Below are positions 2 through 13,342 of a DNA stretch of 64,000 bases, one piece after another. The position numbers were made by a program, and so were the translations under genes. The notes beneath the pieces are model-generated. The model made no database searches. It saw only the letters and a program-made list of their open reading frames with translations, and was not told the DNA's origin. Origin of the DNA: Acutalibacteraceae bacterium. GTDB lineage: Bacteria > Bacillota > Clostridia > Oscillospirales > Acutalibacteraceae. The stretch is taken from assembly GCA_045601885.1 (NCBI GenBank), contig JAZSAN010000005.1:21851-85850 (forward strand), given 5' to 3'. The stretch's first letter is position 1. Every line of letters begins with the position of its first letter.

Positions 2-493
2 TTTAGACGACGATTTGGTAATTGTGAGTACATAAATGCTATCGAATATCAGAACCGCGGAGCACTACATTGTCACTTAATAGTAATTTTTGATGAAAAT
101 CCAACATTTACAATAACTAATGATGATATCAAAAAGTGTTGGAAACATGGTAGTTCTAATATCGGTCCGGTAACATCAGCGGAAGCTGATGCAAAATATC
201 TTACAAATTTTCTTTTTGAATATAAAGTAGAAAAAGAAGATTCGGACTACATATTGAAAACTAAAAAGCAACGTAAAGGTGAAAGAGTCTGTTATTATCC
301 AAGCCATAGCAGACTCTTTAATTGTTCTCAAGGTATTAAACGACCAGAAGTTATTAAAAATATTCCTTATAGTGAAGCATTATCGATGTTTAATTCAATT
401 GAATTAACAAATGCATTATCTATATATAACGACGATGGTAACATTGTTACAATCGAAAATTATAAAATAAAAAATGAAAAGGAGGTCTGCTGA
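2..493 (+). CDS. Rolling-circle replication initiator / relaxase-like HUH endonuclease, C-terminal part (5' end truncated by the window)
   Basis: The frame is open from position 2. It shows an HUH-like motif (GALHCHLIVIF) followed by E-x3-KY (EADAKYLTNF), as in pC194/pUB110-type Rep proteins. Its stop overlaps the next start (TGATG). Confidence 0.55.
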   Translation, partial: FRRRFGNCEYINAIEYQNRGALHCHLIVIFDENPTFTITNDDIKKCWKHGSSNIGPVTSAEADAKYLTNFLFEYKVEKEDSDYILKTKKQRKGERVCYYPSHSRLFNCSQGIKRPEVIKNIPYSEALSMFNSIELTNALSIYNDDGNIVTIENYKIKNEKEVC

Positions 494-681
494 TGCCCCA
501 AATTCGCACTATTAAAGGCGCTGCCGACGAAATTAAGAAAGTTGACCCTAATACCGCAATAACTGAATATCGAATTAGATTACTAGTTAATGAAAAATCA
601 ATACCATCAGTTTCGGTTGGCAATCGAAAACTCGTCAATATGGACGACGTATGGGATTGCTTTAAATTTAAAGTTTCTTAA
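493..681 (+). CDS. Excisionase-like HTH DNA-binding protein (Xis-like)
   Basis: 62 aa, translationally coupled to Rep and immediately upstream of int. It has an HTH_17/excisionase-like pattern (ITEYRIRLLVNEKSIPSVSVGNRKLVN). Confidence 0.5.
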   Translation: MPQIRTIKGAADEIKKVDPNTAITEYRIRLLVNEKSIPSVSVGNRKLVNMDDVWDCFKFKVS

Positions 682-766: not shown

Positions 767-2134
767 ATGGCTTCTGTTGAAAAGCGAAGTAACGGTTATC
801 GTATTACAGTTTATGACGGTTATAATGATAGTGGCCGTCAAGTAAAACACCATAAAACCTGGAAACCTTCTGCCGATATGACCGAATATCAAATTAAAAA
901 AGAACTTGAAAGACAGTGCGTTGCTTTTGAGCAAGAATGTAAGAGCGGTCAAACATTATCCGGCGCAATAAAATTAAAAGAGTATATAGAACTTTGGTTT
1001 GATAAATATGCAGTATCTCATCTCAGACAAACAACACTTGATAATTATCACGATTTAAGTAAAAGAGTTTACAAAGAAATAGGACATATCAGAATAGATA
1101 GATTAAATCCTAATGACCTTAATAAATTTTATGCCTCATTGATGGGCTACACTCCGCAAAATCATAACAACTATGCTCTCAAATTTGACTTCAAATCAAT
1201 TTTATCCGAAAGAAACATTTCATATAGGAAGTTTGCCGAAATGTCAAATGTGGGTATCAGAACAGTAAATTCAATCGCTTCTGGCGATAATGTTTCTTTA
1301 CAAACAGCACATAAAATCGCTGATTGCTTAAAGCTCGATTTTGAAAAACATTTTAAACCTGCAAATAATCAAAAAGGCATATTATCTTCTAAAACCGTTA
1401 AACATTATCATAGTTTCTTATCATCAGCATTATCCAAAGCGGTAAAATGGGGTTATATTAAAGACAATCCTTGTGATAGAGTTGACCCGCCGCGAATCCA
1501 GCATAAACAAATAAAATGTTTCACGACAGATGAAGCAAAAATATTTTTAAAAGGATTATCACAAGAATGTTTAAAGTATCGCGTAATGTTTTCAATCCTA
1601 ATTTATACTGGACTTAGGCGCGGCGAACTATTAGGTCTTGAATGGTCTGATATTAACTTTGAAAAGAAAACAATTTCAATAAGTAGAACATCAGTACATA
1701 TACGTTCAAAAGGTATTGTTACAGATACTACAAAAAATGAATATTCAATCCGCGAAATTTCTATTTCAGATGAATTAATTGAACTTTTGAAATTATATTA
1801 TCAAGAGCAGCAAGAATTAAAAGCAAAGCTTGGAGATATGTGGGTTGAAACAAATAGAATTTGCATAAGAGATGATGGCAGCCCAATGGGTGTAGGCACG
1901 CCTTATAACACGTTACAAAAGTTACTAAAAAAATACAAATTGCCTGATGTTTCATTACATAGTTTAAGACATACTAACGCTACTATAATGATTGAATCAG
2001 GAACGGATTTAAAGACTACATCTACACGCTTAGGGCATTCTCAGGCAAGTACAACAATGAATATTTATGTTCATCAAATTAAATCATCAAATGAGCATGC
2101 AGCAGAAAATATATCTAAAGCATTAGCTATATAA
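767..2134 (+). CDS. int: Tyrosine site-specific integrase with an internal XRE-like HTH insertion
   Basis: It has an N-terminal arm-binding type start (MASVEKRSNGYRITVYDGY), a catalytic region with LRRGELLGLEW, HSLRHTNATIM and LGHSQASTTMNIYVH, and a good SD. Confidence 0.9.
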   Translation: MASVEKRSNGYRITVYDGYNDSGRQVKHHKTWKPSADMTEYQIKKELERQCVAFEQECKSGQTLSGAIKLKEYIELWFDKYAVSHLRQTTLDNYHDLSKRVYKEIGHIRIDRLNPNDLNKFYASLMGYTPQNHNNYALKFDFKSILSERNISYRKFAEMSNVGIRTVNSIASGDNVSLQTAHKIADCLKLDFEKHFKPANNQKGILSSKTVKHYHSFLSSALSKAVKWGYIKDNPCDRVDPPRIQHKQIKCFTTDEAKIFLKGLSQECLKYRVMFSILIYTGLRRGELLGLEWSDINFEKKTISISRTSVHIRSKGIVTDTTKNEYSIREISISDELIELLKLYYQEQQELKAKLGDMWVETNRICIRDDGSPMGVGTPYNTLQKLLKKYKLPDVSLHSLRHTNATIMIESGTDLKTTSTRLGHSQASTTMNIYVHQIKSSNEHAAENISKALAI

Positions 2135-2176: not shown

Positions 2177-2680
2177 TTAATCATCGAAGGTATAACGGTA
2201 ATGCAAGTTATTATCATATATAAATTTGACAGACTTAATACCATTATAACCTTTTTTGAATTTTAATTTTGCAAGAATCATTTTGCGGTATTTTTCCTCT
2301 GCGAAAAAAGTGCTGCAATAAATAATAATCTTTTTATCCTTGCGTATCTCATATCTACCTCTTGGAAAGTAATAAAAAGACTTATTTTGAGTAATTGATT
2401 TATCGAAATCTTTCCATACATTTTCGTGGGAATATTTGTGTTTATCAAAAATTGCCTCTAACGAATTAAAGGAATACTTATATGTAATAAGCCGCTCATT
2501 ATTATATTTATCTTTTATTAACCAAAATACCCCTTTATTTAGGAAGTTCAAATCTTCATCCAAATATTCGCCGTCGGTGGTAATATCGGATTTTTCTTGT
2601 TTTTCTTCAATAATACTTTCAATGTATTCTGCAAGTTCTTCTCTCGTTCTTAAATTTTCGGTTAAAAAATTATAATCCAT
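2177..2680 (-). CDS. Hypothetical protein (167 aa), last gene of the minus-strand run
   Basis: Long ORF with an SD. It has an acidic N-terminus and an FYYFPRGRYEI motif. I do not recognise the family. Confidence 0.5.
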   Translation of the reverse strand: MDYNFLTENLRTREELAEYIESIIEEKQEKSDITTDGEYLDEDLNFLNKGVFWLIKDKYNNERLITYKYSFNSLEAIFDKHKYSHENVWKDFDKSITQNKSFYYFPRGRYEIRKDKKIIIYCSTFFAEEKYRKMILAKLKFKKGYNGIKSVKFIYDNNLHYRYTFDD

Positions 2681-2759
2681 CTATAACAATCCTTATTTAA
2701 TATAATAATTGAATAACTCTGCCAAATTTATAATTAAATAACAATAAATTAAGCTTAAA

Positions 2760-3986
2760 TTATCTATTAATTATTGTACAATTAGGATAATTTATTTCAT
2801 ACCAAGCCATAACACATTTTAATTGTAATCTACTAATACAAGGTGCCACCGACCATAAGCTATTTACCTCACTAAAATAATTTTTAATCCACAATGGAAT
2901 ATTATATTCATCTAAAAGATATTCATATTTATTATGCTTGTTATTATGACTCCAAAAAGCATGTTTTATAAAATCAAAGGCGATATCATCGGACATACCA
3001 TATGAAGTTAAAACTTCAAAAAATTCATCTTTAGAAACAAAAAAATCGGGTTTATATATGTTTTCTAATGATTTTTTATGAGTAAATGAACCATTTAGAT
3101 AAGCATATATTCGGGTTAATGTTTTAAAATCACATTCGGTAATCGTTTCAATTTCTTCAGTAAAAGCTCTTCCTCTAGCATATTCTTTTTCACTTATAGA
3201 TTTATTTTCTATAAATTCAGCCAACATTTCATTCGAATCTTTTGCAATGTATTTTAAAACCTCAATATACACATCTTTTTTATATTGTTCTGAGGTAGGA
3301 AAAACTCCTGTTTTTTTAGCAATTATTCCAATGTTTTCACATATCTTAGAATCTGCGATTATGATTTCCTTGTATATTTTTTTATTACTATTAACCGTAC
3401 CAAATTTCGCATTTAATCGTTTTTTAATTAAATGTTTAATTGATGCCGCAACACTTAATGAAAAATCTGGAATTTGCGGATTATAAAACGAACCCCATAC
3501 AATTTCAAATGGTATATAAAAGCCATCTTTTTTTATTTCCCCTTCGTTTTTCTGACAAATTTTATCTGGCATATCTATTCCAAAACCACTTGTAGATATT
3601 TTAGTATCAAAACAAAATGTACAAATCGAATCAGAACAACGATAATGTGCTTTCATTGGATTGATATATGAAACTCCAAGCAAATAAGCGATTACAGAAC
3701 CAGAAAGCGCGCCTTGAATCATAACAGGATAACCTTCCTCTCTTGATAAGTCTGTAATTTCTTTTATCAGAGCGAAATGAAAGGCGGTACCCGTCTTTTT
3801 CATTAATTGAAGTTCGGTTTCTAATCGTCCGACAATAAAATTCATACCATAAAGTTCACCGGCTTTTCCACGGCATAGTTTAATAATTTGTTGCTCAATA
3901 TTCTTTATTTCTTCTTCAGTCGGACAGGTAAAACTCAACTTGCAGTAATTTGTATTTTTACCCGCTGATATAATTTTAATGTTCAT
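2760..3986 (-). CDS. PolC-like (DNA polymerase III alpha, Gram-positive type) palm/fingers fragment, apparently catalytically degenerate
   Basis: It matches PolC landmarks: HY-C...C, GFGIDMPDKIC...KDGFYIPFE, and a C-terminal PLWIKNYFSEVNSLWSVAPC...AWYEINYP resembling PolC's VP.WYI.SC.KIKYMFPKAHAAAY...AYFK. PolC's PDIDLNFS is PDFSLSVA here, and the central catalytic segment is missing. Confidence 0.6.
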   Translation of the reverse strand: MNIKIISAGKNTNYCKLSFTCPTEEEIKNIEQQIIKLCRGKAGELYGMNFIVGRLETELQLMKKTGTAFHFALIKEITDLSREEGYPVMIQGALSGSVIAYLLGVSYINPMKAHYRCSDSICTFCFDTKISTSGFGIDMPDKICQKNEGEIKKDGFYIPFEIVWGSFYNPQIPDFSLSVAASIKHLIKKRLNAKFGTVNSNKKIYKEIIIADSKICENIGIIAKKTGVFPTSEQYKKDVYIEVLKYIAKDSNEMLAEFIENKSISEKEYARGRAFTEEIETITECDFKTLTRIYAYLNGSFTHKKSLENIYKPDFFVSKDEFFEVLTSYGMSDDIAFDFIKHAFWSHNNKHNKYEYLLDEYNIPLWIKNYFSEVNSLWSVAPCISRLQLKCVMAWYEINYPNCTIINR

Positions 3987-3998
3987 TTTGTTGCTCCT

Positions 3999-4673
3999 TT
4001 ATTTTACATAATATTCCTTGAAATCATTTAAACAAATACAACCCAAAATTCTACCAAAAACCGCCCCACAATCAATAGCAATATGATTATTTTTTATATA
4101 AATTTTTCCATCATATTTAGGGCCAATAAATATTGTTGGGGTGTGCCCGGTTACTATATATTTATTATCATAATATTTTTTATCATATTCAGGGGCGCCG
4201 GCAATAAAATCTTCACGCTCTAAATTGCAATCGAGCAACATTCTATCCTTTTGAGGTATAGTATGAGAAAGCCAAAATTTATTACCATCAACACTTATAT
4301 CTTTAAATATAGTAAACCGACTAATGTAGTTTATTATTTCAAATTGTTCACGCTCAGATAACTCTAGAAACGCATTATTTGTCGGTTCCCCGCCAATCAT
4401 CATCCACATTTTATATCCTAAATCAAGATAATCAAATTCTTCTCTGTTATATATCTTTTTAAACATTCTAAGCGCGGTATAATCGTGGTTACCTAATATA
4501 GGAATAACATTTTTTCTTTTCATCATATCTTGATATATTTTTATGCCGTCAGGTCCTCTGTCAACTATATCACCTAAAATATATAAAGTATCTTCATCAC
4601 TAAATTTTATCTTTTCAAGCATTTTTATATACAAATCATAACATCCGTGTAAATCACTCATTGCGTAAATCAT
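3999..4673 (-). CDS. PPP-family metallophosphoesterase (lambda phosphatase / PrpE / ApaH-like)
   Basis: Motifs present: SDLHG, GDIVDRGPDG, GNHD, GHTP. Confidence 0.85.
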   Translation of the reverse strand: MIYAMSDLHGCYDLYIKMLEKIKFSDEDTLYILGDIVDRGPDGIKIYQDMMKRKNVIPILGNHDYTALRMFKKIYNREEFDYLDLGYKMWMMIGGEPTNNAFLELSEREQFEIINYISRFTIFKDISVDGNKFWLSHTIPQKDRMLLDCNLEREDFIAGAPEYDKKYYDNKYIVTGHTPTIFIGPKYDGKIYIKNNHIAIDCGAVFGRILGCICLNDFKEYYVK

Positions 4674-4780
4674 AATTTAAACCTCTCAATAGTTATTTTT
4701 TATTATTGTATTTCTTGTAATTTAACGGCATTTTCCTACCTTTACTTACATAAAAAACACATACTGTTTTATTCTTAGCC

Positions 4781-5296
4781 TTAAACACATATTTCGTGAA
4801 TTAAGTTTCTATAAAAATCAATTTGATTTATTTTGGAAAAGTCTGTTTTTCTCTCGAGTTTTTCTCGAATGGGTTTAATCTCTTCTTCACACATATCATA
4901 ATAGGTCATATGATATAGTATTCCACCTAATATAGCATCAACGCCATATTTTTCAATACTACACTCATGAACAGGAATACCTAATGCCTGACCCCAATTC
5001 CAACCAAATTCAGTTATACCTTTTAAACTATAATTATTGGCAACAACTTTATCCATATCCGCAAGTGCAACATAAGGAAAGTTTTCATATTTTTCATGCG
5101 GTACAGCAATATAACCAAAATCTTCACCGCACAAATAACACCTTGTGGGAAGATACTCCTTGATATCATCTATTATTAAGCGATATCTTTCTATCAAAGT
5201 GTTTAAATCATCTTCCGGATATTTAGCCAACTTACAAATTGCTTTCGCAACACCTTCGACAGTGCATTCATAAATCAAATTCTCTGCATAGTACAT
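4781..5296 (-). CDS. Hypothetical protein (about 171 aa)
   Basis: The ORF-track start is 5311, but GAGGAG-7nt-ATG favours 5296. I recognise no family with confidence. Confidence 0.5.
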   Translation of the reverse strand: MYYAENLIYECTVEGVAKAICKLAKYPEDDLNTLIERYRLIIDDIKEYLPTRCYLCGEDFGYIAVPHEKYENFPYVALADMDKVVANNYSLKGITEFGWNWGQALGIPVHECSIEKYGVDAILGGILYHMTYYDMCEEEIKPIREKLERKTDFSKINQIDFYRNLIHEICV

Positions 5297-5364
5297 AAAA
5301 ATTCTCCTCACACAGTATTTTTATTTAAACTTTTTTAAGTTTTAATTTGTACCAATCACAGCAA

Positions 5365-5640
5365 TTAGAAATTTCGTCTATATCCTCGCGAATCTGTGAT
5401 GATATTCTTTTCTTTCCAATCGCACAAATTAATCCGAGCTTTATCTCTAGCGGTATATATTGTAACATTCTCATATGCTATTTCTTCAAGCAGGAATTGA
5501 ACCGCTGCAGCAACACCGTAGCAGTCGCCAATTATTATTTCATTACCTTCTTTACAAAGGTTCATAATGTAATTTATCGCTTCAATAGGCAGGCCGCTTA
5601 ATTCTTTACTGCCAAATATGTATACCTTCAAAAGTACCAC
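5365..5640 (-). CDS. Small Rossmann-like protein, possibly SLOG/DprA/DUF2493-like
   Basis: The pattern KVYIFGSKEL...NEIIIGDCYGVAAAVQ..L....NVTIY resembles SLOG/DprA-type folds. It has a GTG start and a weak SD. Confidence 0.35.
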   Translation of the reverse strand: MVLLKVYIFGSKELSGLPIEAINYIMNLCKEGNEIIIGDCYGVAAAVQFLLEEIAYENVTIYTARDKARINLCDWKEKNIITDSRGYRRNF

Positions 5641-5650
5641 TTTCTATAAT

Positions 5651-6439
5651 CTAAATGATTGTTTTTTTAATAAAATCACTAACAGGATACAACGCTATAT
5701 CTTTACCGGTTAGTTCTTCTGTGTAGTATTTTAAATTGGTGAAAAATAAAACATAATCTTTTTCGAGAGTTTTACCATCATCAGAGACATAATAGCAAAT
5801 AGCGCCCATATCATTTGGTGAAACGCTTTCTAATATGACTATTTTTTCTTCAATTAAATCATATAAAATATCGCCAGATTTAAAAGGAGTAGGCAGTTTA
5901 ACATAGTCTTCGGCCATCCCAAAAAAGGCGCTTAATGGGTTCCATTCGCTACATTTGTGAATAGAAATTAGTTCGCCATCAATATATTCCGCTTTAATTG
6001 TATCATCATACGTATTAAACGGTATTTTATGTATTTTATATCCCTTAACAACACGTTTTGTATTAATAATGTTTTCTTTAATATGATTTAAGCAGGATTC
6101 ATAATCTTTAAAGTAAATTGCCAAATGTGAAGTGTGTTCTTCATAATCAATAAATCCTGTATAAAATGAATTATCATCTTTTTCGGTGAGTTCCTGCTTT
6201 ATTAATTCAAGATAATCAAAGTATTCTTTTATAAATGTATGAACACTTTTGCCATCTGAACGTGCGAATTCAAAATCCGACATTGTTAAAATACATTCTA
6301 ATGCCTCTGTTTTTTCTTTTAATTTTAGATTTTCATTTTGTAATAATATCCATAAACAGTCTTGCGAACTCAATTCATAATTGATTTTTCTTAAATGCTC
6401 CGCTACATCTTTCGAGTGAATATATTTGTAAAAATCCAT
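5651..6439 (-). CDS. Hypothetical protein (262 aa)
   Basis: Long ORF with an SD (AGAAAGGA). No motif recognised. Confidence 0.5.
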   Translation of the reverse strand: MDFYKYIHSKDVAEHLRKINYELSSQDCLWILLQNENLKLKEKTEALECILTMSDFEFARSDGKSVHTFIKEYFDYLELIKQELTEKDDNSFYTGFIDYEEHTSHLAIYFKDYESCLNHIKENIINTKRVVKGYKIHKIPFNTYDDTIKAEYIDGELISIHKCSEWNPLSAFFGMAEDYVKLPTPFKSGDILYDLIEEKIVILESVSPNDMGAICYYVSDDGKTLEKDYVLFFTNLKYYTEELTGKDIALYPVSDFIKKTII

Positions 6440-6559
6440 TTTTAAAATTCCTTTCTTGAACCATTCTTTAAAATACTATTCTATTTCTTTCTATATCTAG
6501 TTTTATGGACTCAAACAGAAAATTGTACTATTTATTCCGTAAACTCGATATGGTTGGTT

Positions 6560-7021
6560 TTATGCGACATTGAAATCGTCGGCAAATTGAAATTTAAAAT
6601 CCAAACTTACGGCATAACGAGTAATAATCATGGCGTCAATTAGTCTACAACCTTCGCAATCAATTACACATTGTGGTGCTCCGAGCTCAAAAAGTCTGAA
6701 TAATCTTCTCACTCTGCATTCAACCATTTCATCTTCTAATTGCAGCTCTAAACATTGAACAACACAATCAGTCTCATATATTCCCACATTATCTTCTAAT
6801 TGAGAATATAATATTTCAAAATCATCAATTACGTTCTGCAAATCGTTTTTATCCCAATTCATAGTATAGGATTCAAAATGTTGCTTCTCATATTCATCTG
6901 AGAAAGGGTCTTCATTTCTACGTGACAAAGTCAGCATATTTTCATTTGTGTTTTCAAACAAAAGTTTTGCATACTCAGTCGGGGTAAACTCATAACCATC
7001 ATTAAAAAATTTAATCTCCAT
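6560..7021 (-). CDS. Hypothetical acidic protein (153 aa)
   Basis: Long ORF with an SD (AAGAGG). It is rich in D/E and has several Cys. Confidence 0.5.
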   Translation of the reverse strand: MEIKFFNDGYEFTPTEYAKLLFENTNENMLTLSRRNEDPFSDEYEKQHFESYTMNWDKNDLQNVIDDFEILYSQLEDNVGIYETDCVVQCLELQLEDEMVECRVRRLFRLFELGAPQCVIDCEGCRLIDAMIITRYAVSLDFKFQFADDFNVA

Positions 7022-7128
7022 TTTATTACCTCTTAATTCTTTATTCTAAAATTAAAAATAAACTTTTATATTTCACGGATGGTATTGCTCGTTTTATGGG
7101 TTTTCGTACATTAGTAACCACATCTTAC

Positions 7129-7890
7129 TCACAAAGAATCATAAAATTTAATAACCTTATCTATAAACTCTTTTACCATAGATTTATCAATCAACGCTTT
7201 GTGTCTTTGATAATATTCTTCAATTTTCCTTAAAGTGCGTATAAACTGCGGAATCGTAAGTTCCGTTTCTGTTAGAAGCATTAATGCTTCATTTTCAATT
7301 TTCACGCAAGAATTTTCTAAAAAGTTTGTTACCATTTCAATACGCTTTTCTTTGGCGGTAAAACCTGTATCAGCAAAAAGTGCCTCTCCAAAAATAAGTT
7401 TATATAAAACTTCTAATTCATGAGGATAACAATTTGATGCCAACAACACCTTCAGTCCATTTGAAACTTTTTTTAAAATCAATTTTGCAATTTCTTCTTG
7501 TGTTGTGGTTTTATTTAGCAAATAATCAACATCATCAATTATTAGAAGTTGCACTTCTTCAATTTCGTTTAGTCGTGTTTTTCGCTTGAATATAAAACTT
7601 AGATATTCTTCGCCCAATTCTTTGGCGTTAAGCGAACAAACACTGTGTTTTGTTTTGAATTGATTTTCCGTAGCTCTAAGAAGATGAGTTTTGCCTCGTC
7701 CAATTGGACCATATAACCATAATATCTTTATATCGTAAGGCAATGCTGAAAAAAATTCTTTACAAGCTACAACTGCAAAACGGTTAGTAGAATCTTCTAT
7801 GAATGTATCAAATGTAAATTCCTTTATGTCCAATTTCGCACAATCTACAGGTGACATACTAATATCGCCACTACAATTTTTAATCTCCAT
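7129..7890 (-). CDS. DnaA/Hda-like AAA+ ATPase lacking the DnaA DNA-binding domain
   Basis: Walker A is LYGPIGRGKTHLL and Walker B is LLIIDDVDYL. A DnaA domain-III-like TTQEEIAKLILKKVSNGLKVLLASN follows. At 253 aa it has no domain IV. Confidence 0.75.
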   Translation of the reverse strand: MEIKNCSGDISMSPVDCAKLDIKEFTFDTFIEDSTNRFAVVACKEFFSALPYDIKILWLYGPIGRGKTHLLRATENQFKTKHSVCSLNAKELGEEYLSFIFKRKTRLNEIEEVQLLIIDDVDYLLNKTTTQEEIAKLILKKVSNGLKVLLASNCYPHELEVLYKLIFGEALFADTGFTAKEKRIEMVTNFLENSCVKIENEALMLLTETELTIPQFIRTLRKIEEYYQRHKALIDKSMVKEFIDKVIKFYDSL

Positions 7891-7956: not shown

Positions 7957-8004
7957 ATTATACTATTTACGTGGGCGAAATTTTTCCCACGCAAAGAGTA
8001 TAAT
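7957..8004. promoter_or_regulatory. Back-to-back promoters centred on operator palindrome copy 2
   Basis: The plus strand reads ATTATA-8nt-GTGGGCGAAATTTTTCCCAC-8nt-TATAAT. This places a TATAAT 8 nt from each side of the palindrome, one facing each way. Confidence 0.55.
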
Positions 8005-8060: not shown

Positions 8061-8095
8061 GTGGGAAAATTATTTCCTACATTATGCGATATAAT
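8061..8095 (+). promoter_or_regulatory. Operator palindrome copy 3 plus a -10 immediately upstream of the WYL gene
   Basis: GTGGGAAAATTATTTCCTAC (8061-8080) is followed 9 nt later by TATAAT (8090-8095). Confidence 0.5.
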
Positions 8096-9818: not shown

Positions 9819-10118
9819 TTAATTCTTGTTTTCAAGGGCTTTTATAACATTTATAACTACGTCAATTTCATCTTCTGAAAGGTTAGAAACGTCAAGCATA
9901 CGAACCTTTTCTATATCAAGAAGATAATCGGTTGTAACGTGGAACAGGTGCGCCATTTTTACCAAAACATCATAAGATGGGTATCTGTCCCCAGATTCAT
10001 AATATGAAATAACAGACTTAGCAACTCCAAGTCTTTCGGCTAATTCTCGCTGTGATAATTTTTGTCCTGTTCTAAGCATCTTTAATTTTTCACCAAAGTT
10101 CACTTTATTTGTACCCAC
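9819..10118 (-). CDS. XRE-family HTH transcriptional regulator
   Basis: LSQRELAERLGVAKSVISYYESGDRYPSYDVLVKMAHLFHVTTDYLL. Confidence 0.9.
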   Translation of the reverse strand: MGTNKVNFGEKLKMLRTGQKLSQRELAERLGVAKSVISYYESGDRYPSYDVLVKMAHLFHVTTDYLLDIEKVRMLDVSNLSEDEIDVVINVIKALENKN

Positions 10119-10156
10119 CTTTCAATATCAGTCAACATTATTTTACTATTGTATCG

Positions 10157-10186
10157 TTGACAATTGGATATTTATTATGATAAAAT
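10157..10186 (+). promoter_or_regulatory. Sigma-A-type promoter for the 10250-13107 operon, embedded in GTCAAC/GTTGAC repeats
   Basis: TTGACA (10157-10162), then an 18-nt spacer ending in TG, then TAAAAT (10181-10186). GTCAAC/GTTGAC inverted copies and further GTCAA/TGAC elements flank it and are likely XRE operators. Confidence 0.55.
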
Positions 10187-10249
10187 AGTGGACAAGACAG
10201 TCAAAAACTATTATACTGACATTATAAATAACCGATTGGAGTGTTTGTA

Positions 10250-12651: not shown

Positions 12652-13107
12652 ATGTTGAAAAAGTTAACTGCTTTAGTTTTAGTACTATTATTATGTATGG
12701 CTTTTGTAGGTTGTGGAGAATCAAATAATCAAGATGAAGAAAAAACAAAAAATAATGTTTCTTCAGTTGAAAGTGATTCTTTAGACGCAGAATCAAATTT
12801 ACTAGAATCAAATATTGAATCTAATGTCGAGTCGGAAGTAGATAATTTGACAATATGTGTTTCTTGCGGAAACCGATTCGAATCATTGCGTGGATTCAAA
12901 TATTGTAATTCATGTAGATGTTGGACAACCACTTGTGAAAATAAAAGAGTAGATGGTTCGTCTTTTTGTGCTGAACATAAATGTTTGATATGCGATAGTA
13001 TTGCGTACGATTATTCCCCTTACTGTAATCAACATCGTTGTCGTGAATATGGTTGCGATTCTCCCGCGATATCGGGAGAAGAGCGTTGTATAGCTCATTT
13101 AAAATAA
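12652..13107 (+). CDS. Lipoprotein with Cys/His-rich repeats
   Basis: The signal peptide carries a lipobox (LCMAFVGCG). The C-terminal half has repeated C-x9-11-C-x2-H-x-C units. Confidence 0.65.
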   Translation: MLKKLTALVLVLLLCMAFVGCGESNNQDEEKTKNNVSSVESDSLDAESNLLESNIESNVESEVDNLTICVSCGNRFESLRGFKYCNSCRCWTTTCENKRVDGSSFCAEHKCLICDSIAYDYSPYCNQHRCREYGCDSPAISGEERCIAHLK

Positions 13108-13259: not shown

Positions 13260-13342
13260 TGGTGCGGGTGACAGGACTTGAACCTGCACGAATGCTCACC
13301 AGATCCTAAGTCTGGCGCGTCTGCCAATTCCGCCACACCCGC
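13260..13342 (-). tRNA. tRNA-Leu (anticodon UAG), long variable arm, encoded CCA
   Basis: The reverse complement GCGGGTG..CCAGA-CTTAGGA-TCTGG..GGTTCAAGTCC..CACCCGC-A-CCA folds as a class II cloverleaf. Confidence 0.9.

Follow-up and report, generated by a model that had tools for sequence, protein, structure and literature searches.

A locus in the genome of an Acutalibacteraceae bacterium raises the question of what an integrative element does with relatives of the initiator DnaA and the polymerase PolC that have lost catalytic or DNA-binding parts. The locus lies in a stretch of 64,000 nucleotides (GenBank assembly GCA_045601885.1, contig JAZSAN010000005.1, positions 21,851 to 85,850 of the forward strand), hereafter the window, to which coordinates refer unless another locus, designated by an L number, is named. 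Eight co-oriented open reading frames (ORFs), g1 to g8, occupy positions 2177-7890 on the minus strand and are divergent from a gene encoding a regulator with WYL, WCX and leucine-rich repeat (LRR) domains. The locus is best explained as an inducible accessory operon of an integrative element of about 13 kb at a tRNA-Leu gene, with a backbone made of a HUH rolling-circle replication protein (Rep), Xis and an integrase (Int). It is quite possible, and we propose it tentatively, that the operon is an inducible phage or mobile-element module acting on the PolC-type replisome, on initiation or on nucleotides by binding and not by catalysis.

A first-pass annotation of this DNA had predicted the eight ORFs, all of which were recovered on the minus strand with the same positions and lengths. 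The operon and its control region comprise the following features (aa, amino acids):

7129-7890, minus strand: g1, AAA+ ATPase resembling DnaA domain III, 253 aa (Bac_DnaA, 6e-21)
6560-7021, minus strand: g2, acidic protein, 153 aa (pI 4.1, net charge -20)
5651-6439, minus strand: g3, 262 aa, present in every element lineage examined
5365-5640, minus strand: g4, SLOG/NDT-like remnant, 91 aa, with a GTG start and no good ribosome-binding site
4781-5311, minus strand: g5, DUF6557 protein, 176 aa from a GTG or 171 aa from an internal ATG (Pfam E=9e-11)
3999-4673, minus strand: g6, lambda/NinI-type metallophosphatase of the PPP family, 224 aa (Metallophos, 3.5e-17; phrog_246, 4e-39)
2760-3986, minus strand: g7, mini-PolC, 408 aa, PolC palm and part of the fingers
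2177-2680, minus strand: g8, 167 aa, acidic N-terminal helix followed by a domain of about 110 aa
4686-5643, minus strand: cassette 1 (g4 remnant and g5), a clean 958-bp indel relative to L016, L005 and L018
8146-9696, plus strand: WYL-WCX-LRR regulator, 516 aa (WYL at residues 157-230, WCX at 262-336, LRR at about 341-483)
8061-8080, unstranded: operator palindrome 1, GTGGGAAAATTATTTCCTAC, 9 nt upstream of a TATAAT at 8090-8095 (plus strand), the presumed promoter of the WYL gene
7971-7990, unstranded: operator palindrome 2, GTGGGCGAAATTTTTCCCAC on the plus strand, 8 nt upstream of a TATAAT at 7962-7957 (minus strand), the presumed operon promoter

Inactivated relatives of PolC and DnaA

The description of g7 as a PolC palm/fingers fragment with a degenerate catalytic motif was borne out. 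The protein aligns solely to residues 848-1002 (palm) and 1233-1321 (fingers) of PolC in PDB 9qpc (E=1.8e-27), with further matches to PF07733 (8e-9) and NF001688 (1.6e-25), and it reads PDFSLS at the position of the PolC motif PDIDLNF. In common with PolC (PDB 9qpc, 3f2b), g7 retains the palm with its Zn-ribbon insert, part of the fingers (at 1e-27) and the conserved GS loop, taken as the nucleotide-binding loop. In contrast to PolC, it has 408 residues instead of about 1450, is devoid of the PHP, exonuclease, OB, thumb-middle and clamp- and tau-binding parts, and belongs to a family in which no aligned member (of 25) keeps the catalytic DxD pair.

This family was collected by an exhaustive search with a hidden Markov model (HMM) against 1.84 billion representative proteins and comprises roughly 50 clusters at 50% identity. 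Most of the 49 matches at E<=1e-30 are stand-alone proteins of 300-420 aa, with a few longer PolC-like proteins among them, and full-length PolC and DnaE rank after these. The DxD pair occurs in none of the 25 members that were aligned; at the position of the second Asp, 16 have Ser or Thr and one has Asp, and the Ser of the GS loop is kept in 23. The absence of DxD from all 25 therefore identifies a family-wide inactivated polymerase module and not a one-off pseudogene. The family is apparently undescribed: literature searches for PolC-like proteins, for PF07733 in connection with defence and for DUF6557 returned nothing relevant, which is weak evidence of novelty since subscription journals were not covered. 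Other routes to the family were less productive. Word-indexed protein searches gave two, then five relatives, an exact look-up of the window's own mini-PolC gave no record and hence no sequence of the element to the left of the window, and the broad family alignment was too divergent for locus scans. Among genome contigs, a scan found only the Acutalibacteraceae metagenome-assembled genome (MAG); among metagenomes, it found three loci.

The product of g1 had been described as a DnaA/Hda-like ATPase without a DNA-binding domain, and it is indeed missing both domain I and domain IV, the protein stopping after the lid. Its match to TIGR00362 (1.5e-26) is far under the cutoff of that model and ends at position 340 of 437, and g1 stays below every equivalog cutoff in NCBIfam. 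It also matches the DnaC-like helicase-loader family phrog_50 (4e-12) and DnaI. When aligned to B. subtilis DnaA (8bv3), the Walker A (GPIGRGKTH) and Walker B (LLIIDDVD) motifs are intact and the box VII arginine finger is lost, SDRPPKE...RLRSRF of DnaA being replaced by SNCYPHE...LYKLIF with a gap of three residues. This finger is needed for the function of the DnaA oligomer and for the Hda-mediated regulatory inactivation of DnaA (RIDA). The N-terminus of g1, MEIKNCSGDISMSPVD, does not contain an Hda-type clamp-binding motif (QL[SD]LF-type). Set beside DnaA domain III, Hda and the DnaC/DnaI loaders, g1 thus shares the DnaA-type AAA+ fold with both Walker motifs and differs by the loss of these domains and motifs. 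In the assembly collection, 110 index blocks contain the exact g1 protein, which was counted on 69 contigs.

A WYL-LRR regulator and its operators

The divergent gene encodes a protein with Pfam matches to WYL (PF13280, 4e-11), WCX (PF25583, 1.3e-8) and LRR_4 (1e-7), and it is also recovered by the PADLOC WYL model (1e-27). Its LRR is of the internalin/SDS22 class, with matches to internalins ranging from 1e-17 to 1e-24. An N-terminal DNA-binding domain of the helix-turn-helix (HTH) type is presumed; residues 1-150 matched no Pfam HTH model at E<=0.1. Orthologues of this regulator are divergent from the operon in every element lineage, and no LRR on a characterised WYL regulator was found in the literature surveyed.

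Based on an alignment of intergenic regions from three element lineages, the two palindromes are 20 bp long, follow the consensus GTGGGAAA-N4-TTTCCCAC and are conserved while their flanks diverge. The core of palindrome 1, GGGAAA...TTTCC, is invariant in seven intergenic regions from these three lineages. Neither promoter has a recognisable -35 hexamer, and the spacing from palindrome to TATAAT is alike at both sites (8-9 nt). Because each palindrome lies at this distance upstream of a TATAAT and the two sites face in opposite directions, they cover the -35 position of back-to-back promoters, an arrangement that would fit a dimeric regulator acting on both. Among known proteins of this type, CapW and BrxR are repressors of adjacent operons, CapW being released by binding of single-stranded DNA (PMC9122588, PMC9122601, PMC11662680), and DriD and PafBC are activators (PMC10853764).

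The LRR of the regulator belongs to the same 22-residue class as that of SDS22, also known as PP1 regulatory subunit 7. SDS22 binds PP1, a phosphatase of the PPP family. The WYL-LRR and PPP genes co-occur in nearly all element lineages. The likeness to SDS22 may reflect the LRR class alone.

Modularity among related elements

Relatives of the element, many of them on metagenome contigs, were reached from two starting points, the g3 homologues and g1 copies of identical sequence. Five of the eight genes (g1, g2, g3, PPP and g8) are present in about 20 near-identical elements with a common order: after tRNA-Leu come surface-type genes, a cI-like HTH gene and the WYL-LRR gene, the last on the strand opposite to the operon g1-g2-g3-PPP-g8, and then a convergent Int-Xis-Rep unit. 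In blastn comparisons, the window is 88-95% identical to L016, L005 and L018 over g1-g3 and g8. The additional genes of the window correspond to cassette 1 and to a second cassette at 2794-4001, a clean 1.2-kb indel relative to the sister elements that is exactly the mini-PolC gene; mini-PolC is absent from nearly all sisters. Other relatives differ more deeply. L009 has g2, g3, a full-length SLOG-like gene, a gene for a protein of 121 aa and g8, without g1 and PPP, and a second lineage, in which a D5 primase-helicase and PolA take the place of the HUH Rep as replicon, has only the WYL-LRR gene divergent from g3-PPP.

The first-pass proposal that the eight genes form one system does not survive this comparison, given the five-gene sisters, the two cassette indels and the lineages that are reduced to the WYL gene and g3 with or without PPP. 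WYL-LRR and g3 occur in all three element lineages examined, which represent two replicon types, and PPP follows g3 in all but one; these genes therefore constitute a common core that is independent of replicon type. The g1, g2 and g5 families were not found outside the element family, except for a g8-DnaA fusion on the megaplasmid pCY186 (see below), and are lineage-specific additions.

Co-occurrence beyond the element family

In an Acutalibacteraceae MAG (L001), a degraded island beside tRNA-Leu(caa) contains, in this order, a g8-like gene, PPP (55% identity), mini-PolC (44%), a g3-like gene (28%) and RtcB. A metagenome contig (L024, JAEIGA010044246.1) has PPP, mini-PolC and two g3-like paralogues. 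On an IMG/VR viral contig (L053), a mini-PolC cut by the contig end is found with a YpsA-type SLOG protein (1.6e-22), g8, PPP and two g3-like genes, and behind this group lie genes for a DUF2800 PD-(D/E)XK nuclease and an Enc34-type single-stranded DNA-binding protein (SSB). In L013, YpsA is beside mini-PolC, and their vicinity holds a WYL gene, a DnaB_C fragment and a pentapeptide-repeat protein.

Two plasmids extend these associations. The Ruminococcus albus 7 plasmid pRUMAL01 (L033, NC_014824.1, 407326-412114) has an operon for WYL, LRR_5, a GIY-YIG nuclease, a UPF0227 hydrolase, g8 and a 310-aa tandem phosphatase of the dual-specificity (DSP) type; WYL and LRR are separate genes here, and PPP is replaced by an unrelated phosphatase fold. 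WYL-linked operons with g8 are known from pRUMAL01 and from MT838628. The Butyrivibrio proteoclasticus megaplasmid pCY186 encodes a 281-aa fusion of g8 to a DnaA domain III (Bac_DnaA, 5e-41), which is annotated merely as a "DnaA/Hda family protein" and joins the families of the window's first and last genes. The fusion belongs to a cluster (L032, NC_014390.1, 117016-133618) with dnaX (401 aa), a 480-aa DnaE-like protein consisting of palm and fingers, a 332-aa PolC-like protein, a full-length second PolC, DnaB, a DnaC-like protein, a soluble FtsH-like AAA-M41 protease and an SGNH hydrolase. Both mini-polymerases of this cluster are without DxD. The fusion and the surrounding replisome paralogues lend support to a link with replication, which the first-pass annotation had offered as an alternative. 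Its suggestion of decoys or poisons would also agree with the data.

The neighbourhood comparison that this annotation called for therefore found g3, PPP, mini-PolC, g8 and a YpsA-type SLOG protein recurring in unrelated contexts, and its reservation that the genes might not co-occur outside this genome no longer applies. The co-occurrence of this guild (mini-PolC, g3, PPP, g8 and SLOG) is real and holds at the level of sub-modules. Those of its members whose ancestry can be recognised have ties to replication or to nucleotides, and most of them are non-catalytic.

Several further observations concern the same loci. Directly after the PPP, mini-PolC and g3-like genes of L024 lies, at 4104-6311, a gene for a 735-aa PolC-like protein made of PHP, palm and fingers, with an intact PDIDLNF motif and without exonuclease insert, OB or C-terminal region; this protein could be a minimal yet active C-family polymerase accompanied by its dead paralogue. 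AAA+ proteins with an AAA_lid_6 domain are found beside WYL genes in L013 (1-7952; 549 aa, cut at the locus edge) and L026 (634-3904; 720 aa), both contexts containing mini-PolC or g8, and L013 also has a soluble FtsH-like AAA-nSTAND3-M41 protein, as in pCY186. An RNA-repair module was considered and dropped, RtcB and Thg1 each being a neighbour in one context and a 3'-phosphatase not complementing RtcB.

The phosphatase, g3, g8 and the remaining genes

The assignment of g6 to the PPP family stands: all of its metal- and phosphate-binding motifs (SDLHG, GDIVDRG, GNHD, SHT and GHTP) are intact, and PPP is the sole component whose sequence has a recognisable intact catalytic site. With lambda NinI, PrpA and ApaH, g6 has these motifs in common as well as a full-length match to the NinI-like PHROG; matches to ApaH- and PrpA-type NCBIfam models remained below cutoffs and reached no equivalog. 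It differs from these phosphatases by the conservation of its gene beside g3 or mini-PolC, which it adjoins in L001, L004, L024, L027-L029 and L053, and by its replacement with a DSP-type phosphatase in one related operon.

The proteins g3 and g8, listed as unknowns in the first-pass annotation, had no match in Pfam, PHROGs, NCBIfam or PADLOC. The AlphaFold2 (AF2) model of g3 (mean pLDDT 93, pTM 0.86) consists of a helical N-domain, a central domain with five strands and two helices, and a C-terminal SH3/Tudor-like barrel that starts at a conserved PTPFKxGDIL motif. A Foldseek search of the PDB and BFVD gave nothing at E<1e-3, the sole likeness being that of the barrel to HspQ (5ycq, TMt 0.74), and no match was obtained by a PDB profile search, by tblastn against phages and plasmids or by an IMG/VR scan. 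Homologues of g3 fall into 20 clusters and, beyond the elements, occur in L001, L024 and L053. A relationship with the 569-aa protein after mini-PolC in L013 was not established (hmmsearch E=0.35; 56% probability over a 19-residue motif in hhalign).

The conserved domain of g8 is marked by the invariants G-FW, NH..W, YYPRGR(V) and D..HY (DGSxHY in viral copies), and its invariant His, Arg, Asp and His residues may form an active site. It was detected in 32 IMG/VR contigs (L034-L065), most of them 90-270 kb long, where it generally stands alone in a protein of about 125-140 aa encoded in accessory regions of heterogeneous content, with tandem duplicates in L040 and L062. PDB profile searches with g8 gave noise only, and the single-sequence AF2 model was poor (pLDDT 52). 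Identity of g3 or g8 with ARPP was considered and dropped, the conserved Cys/Gln signature being absent from both.

The acidic character noted for g2 is evident from its composition; the protein has no known domain in Pfam, PHROGs, NCBIfam or PADLOC and was found only in element lineages with a rolling-circle Rep. The product of g4, labelled SLOG/DprA-like in that annotation, has at best a weak SLOG/NDT likeness, seen through the 140-aa L009 homologue, which matches PF05014 at E=0.004, below threshold; g4 itself has no Pfam match, and instead of a whole protein it is a truncated remnant missing about 50 C-terminal residues relative to that homologue, and is probably decaying. The product of g5, previously listed as an unknown, belongs to DUF6557 (42.9 bits against a gathering cutoff of 27.8).

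The element and its borders

The remaining landmarks of the element are:

2-496, plus strand: C-terminal 164 aa of the HUH rolling-circle Rep, by-eye alignment to the Rep of L005 and L016 (REP_ORF2-G2P; phrog_3419, 3e-19)
493-681, plus strand: Xis
767-2134, plus strand: tyrosine integrase, Int (Phage_integrase, 3e-28)
2142-2172, both strands: bidirectional intrinsic terminator with a 12-bp stem and T runs on either strand
13260-13342, minus strand: tRNA-Leu(tag), the integration target at the far end of the element (ARAGORN)

A mobile element at a tRNA gene with an adjacent WYL gene and a shared operator, as the locus had initially been described, is what the tRNA-Leu, Int/Xis/Rep and conserved palindromes delineate. 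Sister elements likewise adjoin tRNA-Leu genes, and the tRNA junction is kept across loci. The terminator lies between the operon and the convergent Rep-Xis-Int unit. Within the operon, from g1 to g8, the intergenic gaps are 107, 120, 10, 53, 107, 12 and 79 nt, and no terminator-like sites were found on the coding strand. In DNA-level searches of phage and plasmid collections with the whole island, the tRNA was the sole match. An inovirus-type prophage was dropped as a candidate, matches to a Zot-like ATPase and to coat proteins not having been found.

A second regulatory node occurs at 9819-10240, where a cI-like HTH gene (99 aa, minus strand) is divergent from an operon for a 339-aa protein, a 309-aa protein and a small protein, with strong promoter-like sites placed face to face at 10157-10217. 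The variable spots of the element are its tRNA-proximal end (12652-13107 in the window) and the gap between the HTH and WYL genes, and they are the same in L007, L016, L021 and L022. Products encoded there include a Cys-rich protein of 151 aa that bears a hydrophobic segment at its N-terminus, DUF6273, BspA-type LRR_5 proteins (182 and 347 aa) and a DUF2779/Cas4-like protein of 497 aa. In the flanks of related elements (L004, 18707-20591; L009, 13976-15871; L027-L029) there are genes for an AAA_15/AAA_21 ATPase accompanied by DUF4276, for SUFU-like proteins of the immunity type and for an ADP-ribosylglycohydrolase, which suggests further conflict genes at the element ends.

Possible functions of the operon

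In the module that we tentatively propose, the regulator would hold both promoters off until its WYL domain binds a nucleic-acid cue such as single-stranded DNA, by analogy with CapW and BrxR, and the LRR may add a protein cue to this switch. The products would then act through binding, g1 with its ATP-binding motifs and mini-PolC with its palm, fingers and GS loop. Binding is preferred over catalysis because g1 has lost its finger and DNA-binding domain and mini-PolC its metal-binding carboxylates. The targets would be the PolC-type replisome, the initiation machinery or nucleotides, and replication would be redirected or blocked once the element or a phage is active. Signs of phage origin support this proposal, namely the 32 IMG/VR contigs with the g8 domain and the NinI-like PHROG that is the best match of PPP.

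Several points weigh against it. Neither the structure search with g3 (PDB, BFVD) nor the poor model of g8 was informative. The operon of the D5/PolA lineage, with g3 and PPP only, holds no replication-protein mimic, so that a replication target for this pair is pure extrapolation, and the g1, g2 and g5 families were not encountered with the guild outside the element family, bar the pCY186 fusion. In large phages, g8 has a varied set of neighbours (methylases, recombinases, Tad3) and may act alone and differently. A palindrome at the -35 position without a hexamer would equally suit activator-type WYL factors such as PafBC and DriD, so the regulator may be a repressor or an activator. Finally, WYL regulators are best known beside host defence, which favours the defence explanation discussed below.

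A more specific version, in which the locus is a conflict system built on a pseudo-replisome, seems unlikely. Non-catalytic copies of initiator and polymerase would dock on a PolC-type replisome, on primer ends or on deoxynucleoside triphosphates, whereby replication would be arrested or captured. The state of the system would be set or reset by the phosphatase, perhaps through the Ser/Thr found in mini-PolC in place of the second Asp, and the LRR would make expression respond to a foreign protein or to the phosphatase itself, in the manner of SDS22 with PP1.

Whether the operon is instead anti-phage or anti-plasmid defence cargo is doubtful but deserves attention. A repressor of the BrxR/CapW type would be relieved upon infection, the pseudo-DnaA and pseudo-PolC proteins would serve as decoys, sensors or poisons, and PPP, g3 and g8 would be effectors or modulators. 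Regulators with the winged HTH (wHTH)-WYL-WCX architecture are encoded next to defence systems and in defence islands (PMC9122601, PMC9122588), the operon resides on an integrative element at a tRNA gene, and the LRR fused to the C-terminus of the regulator is a classical ligand-recognition module. Nucleases and STAND-like ATPases occur in related contexts (GIY-YIG in pRUMAL01; AAA-nSTAND3-M41 and DUF2779 in L013), and modular accretion with phosphatase displacement marks conflict systems such as the WYL/Nudix-regulated ARG systems (PMC9503650). Yet, as the first-pass annotation had observed, no named defence module fits: the best PADLOC matches of the eight operon proteins are at the level of noise (E of about 0.006-0.009), and only the WYL protein is recognised. 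No obvious killing effector is present in the window. The content of the operon is nearly fixed in about 20 close relatives, unlike the usual swapped hot-spot cargo, and the guild occurs in a viral contig beside phage replication and recombination genes, g8 being common in phage contigs of 100-270 kb; this near-constancy and the viral occurrences weaken classical swappable defence cargo as an explanation. A further reading is counter-defence or host takeover by phage-type genes that are expressed upon induction of the element. In large phages, g8 homologues belong to accessory regions that also encode DNA methylases and the Thoeris inhibitor Tad3. Here g2, with its high negative charge, would be a DNA mimic, SLOG and mini-PolC would soak up or degrade nucleotide signals, the NinI-like PPP would reverse host kinase or nucleotide signalling, and g8 would be a small inhibitor. 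Viral SLOG proteins of the YpsA clade have been proposed to destroy immune nucleotide signals (PMC9503650), and RtcB (L001), Thg1 with a kinase (L010), a pentapeptide-repeat protein (L013) and a UDG-like protein (L023) are found as neighbours. Each of these neighbour links was seen once, however, no protein of the operon matches a known anti-defence family, and replication is favoured over signal quenching by the g8-DnaA fusion and by the replisome cluster of pCY186, so that we regard this explanation as rather improbable.

Replication accessories of the element itself, with a helicase-loader-like ATPase, g8 as an origin-binding partner and a polymerase accessory helping the HUH Rep on the excised circle, would account for the phrog_50 and DnaI matches of g1, for the pCY186 fusion and the mini-polymerases among dnaX, polC, dnaB and dnaC-like genes, and for the SSB and recombination nuclease that adjoin the guild in L053. 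However, g1 and g7 are without finger or catalytic residues, the operon has its own regulator, and a terminator parts it from Rep-Xis-Int. A plain replication role is further weakened because g3 and PPP persist with a different replicon (D5 primase-helicase and PolA) and because g7 is missing from nearly all sisters and g1 from L009; we consider it quite improbable. A mosaic of unrelated moron genes, assembled between regulator and integrase with no joint function, would agree with the cassette-type indels, the decay of g4 and a gene order that varies among contexts. It is nevertheless hardly credible, given that, in the small sample examined, five families are found together in at least four unrelated contexts, at 25-55% identity and with tight or overlapping junctions, and that two of the families, g8 and DnaA-like, are joined in a domain fusion.

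Comparison with known systems and significance

With the CapW/BrxR repressors (PMC9122588, PMC9122601, PMC11662680), the locus shares WYL and WCX domains, an adjacent operon, palindromes in a shared promoter region and a location on a mobile element. Unlike them, the window's regulator has an extra LRR of the internalin class and no sequence match to the solved structures of BrxR, CapW or DriD, and the operon genes match no known defence system. Operons controlled by Stl in phage-inducible chromosomal islands (PICIs) are similar in that they, too, belong to a small integrative element that has int, xis and a replication initiator of its own and whose master regulator is divergent from the induced operon. 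The present locus differs in its regulator, which is of the WYL-LRR type, and packaging or interference genes were not recognised in it. The closest published concept is that of the WYL/Nudix-regulated ADP-ribosylglycohydrolase (ARG)-phosphatase systems predicted by Iyer et al. in 2022 (PMC9503650, section 3.8). Both have a WYL regulator, presumed negative in the present locus, exchanges between calcineurin-like and DSP/rhodanese phosphatases, a core with variable add-ons and beta-rich uncharacterised partners. In contrast to those systems, the operon contains no ADP-ribosylglycohydrolase, g3 and g8 are without the Cys/Gln of ARPP, and the replication mimics are unique to the window set.

The guild and this variant of regulator are real and apparently undescribed. 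Three objects emerge: a family of dead C-family palm/fingers proteins; a recurring guild in a viral contig, plasmids and integrative elements of gut and rumen Clostridia; and a WYL-LRR regulator with conserved operators. PolC is an antibiotic target in Gram-positive bacteria. If the guild does target replication, it would represent a new way for mobile elements or their hosts to control the PolC replisome; if it serves counter-defence, several new protein families would be added to that repertoire. Either way, the known contents of WYL-controlled operons are widened.

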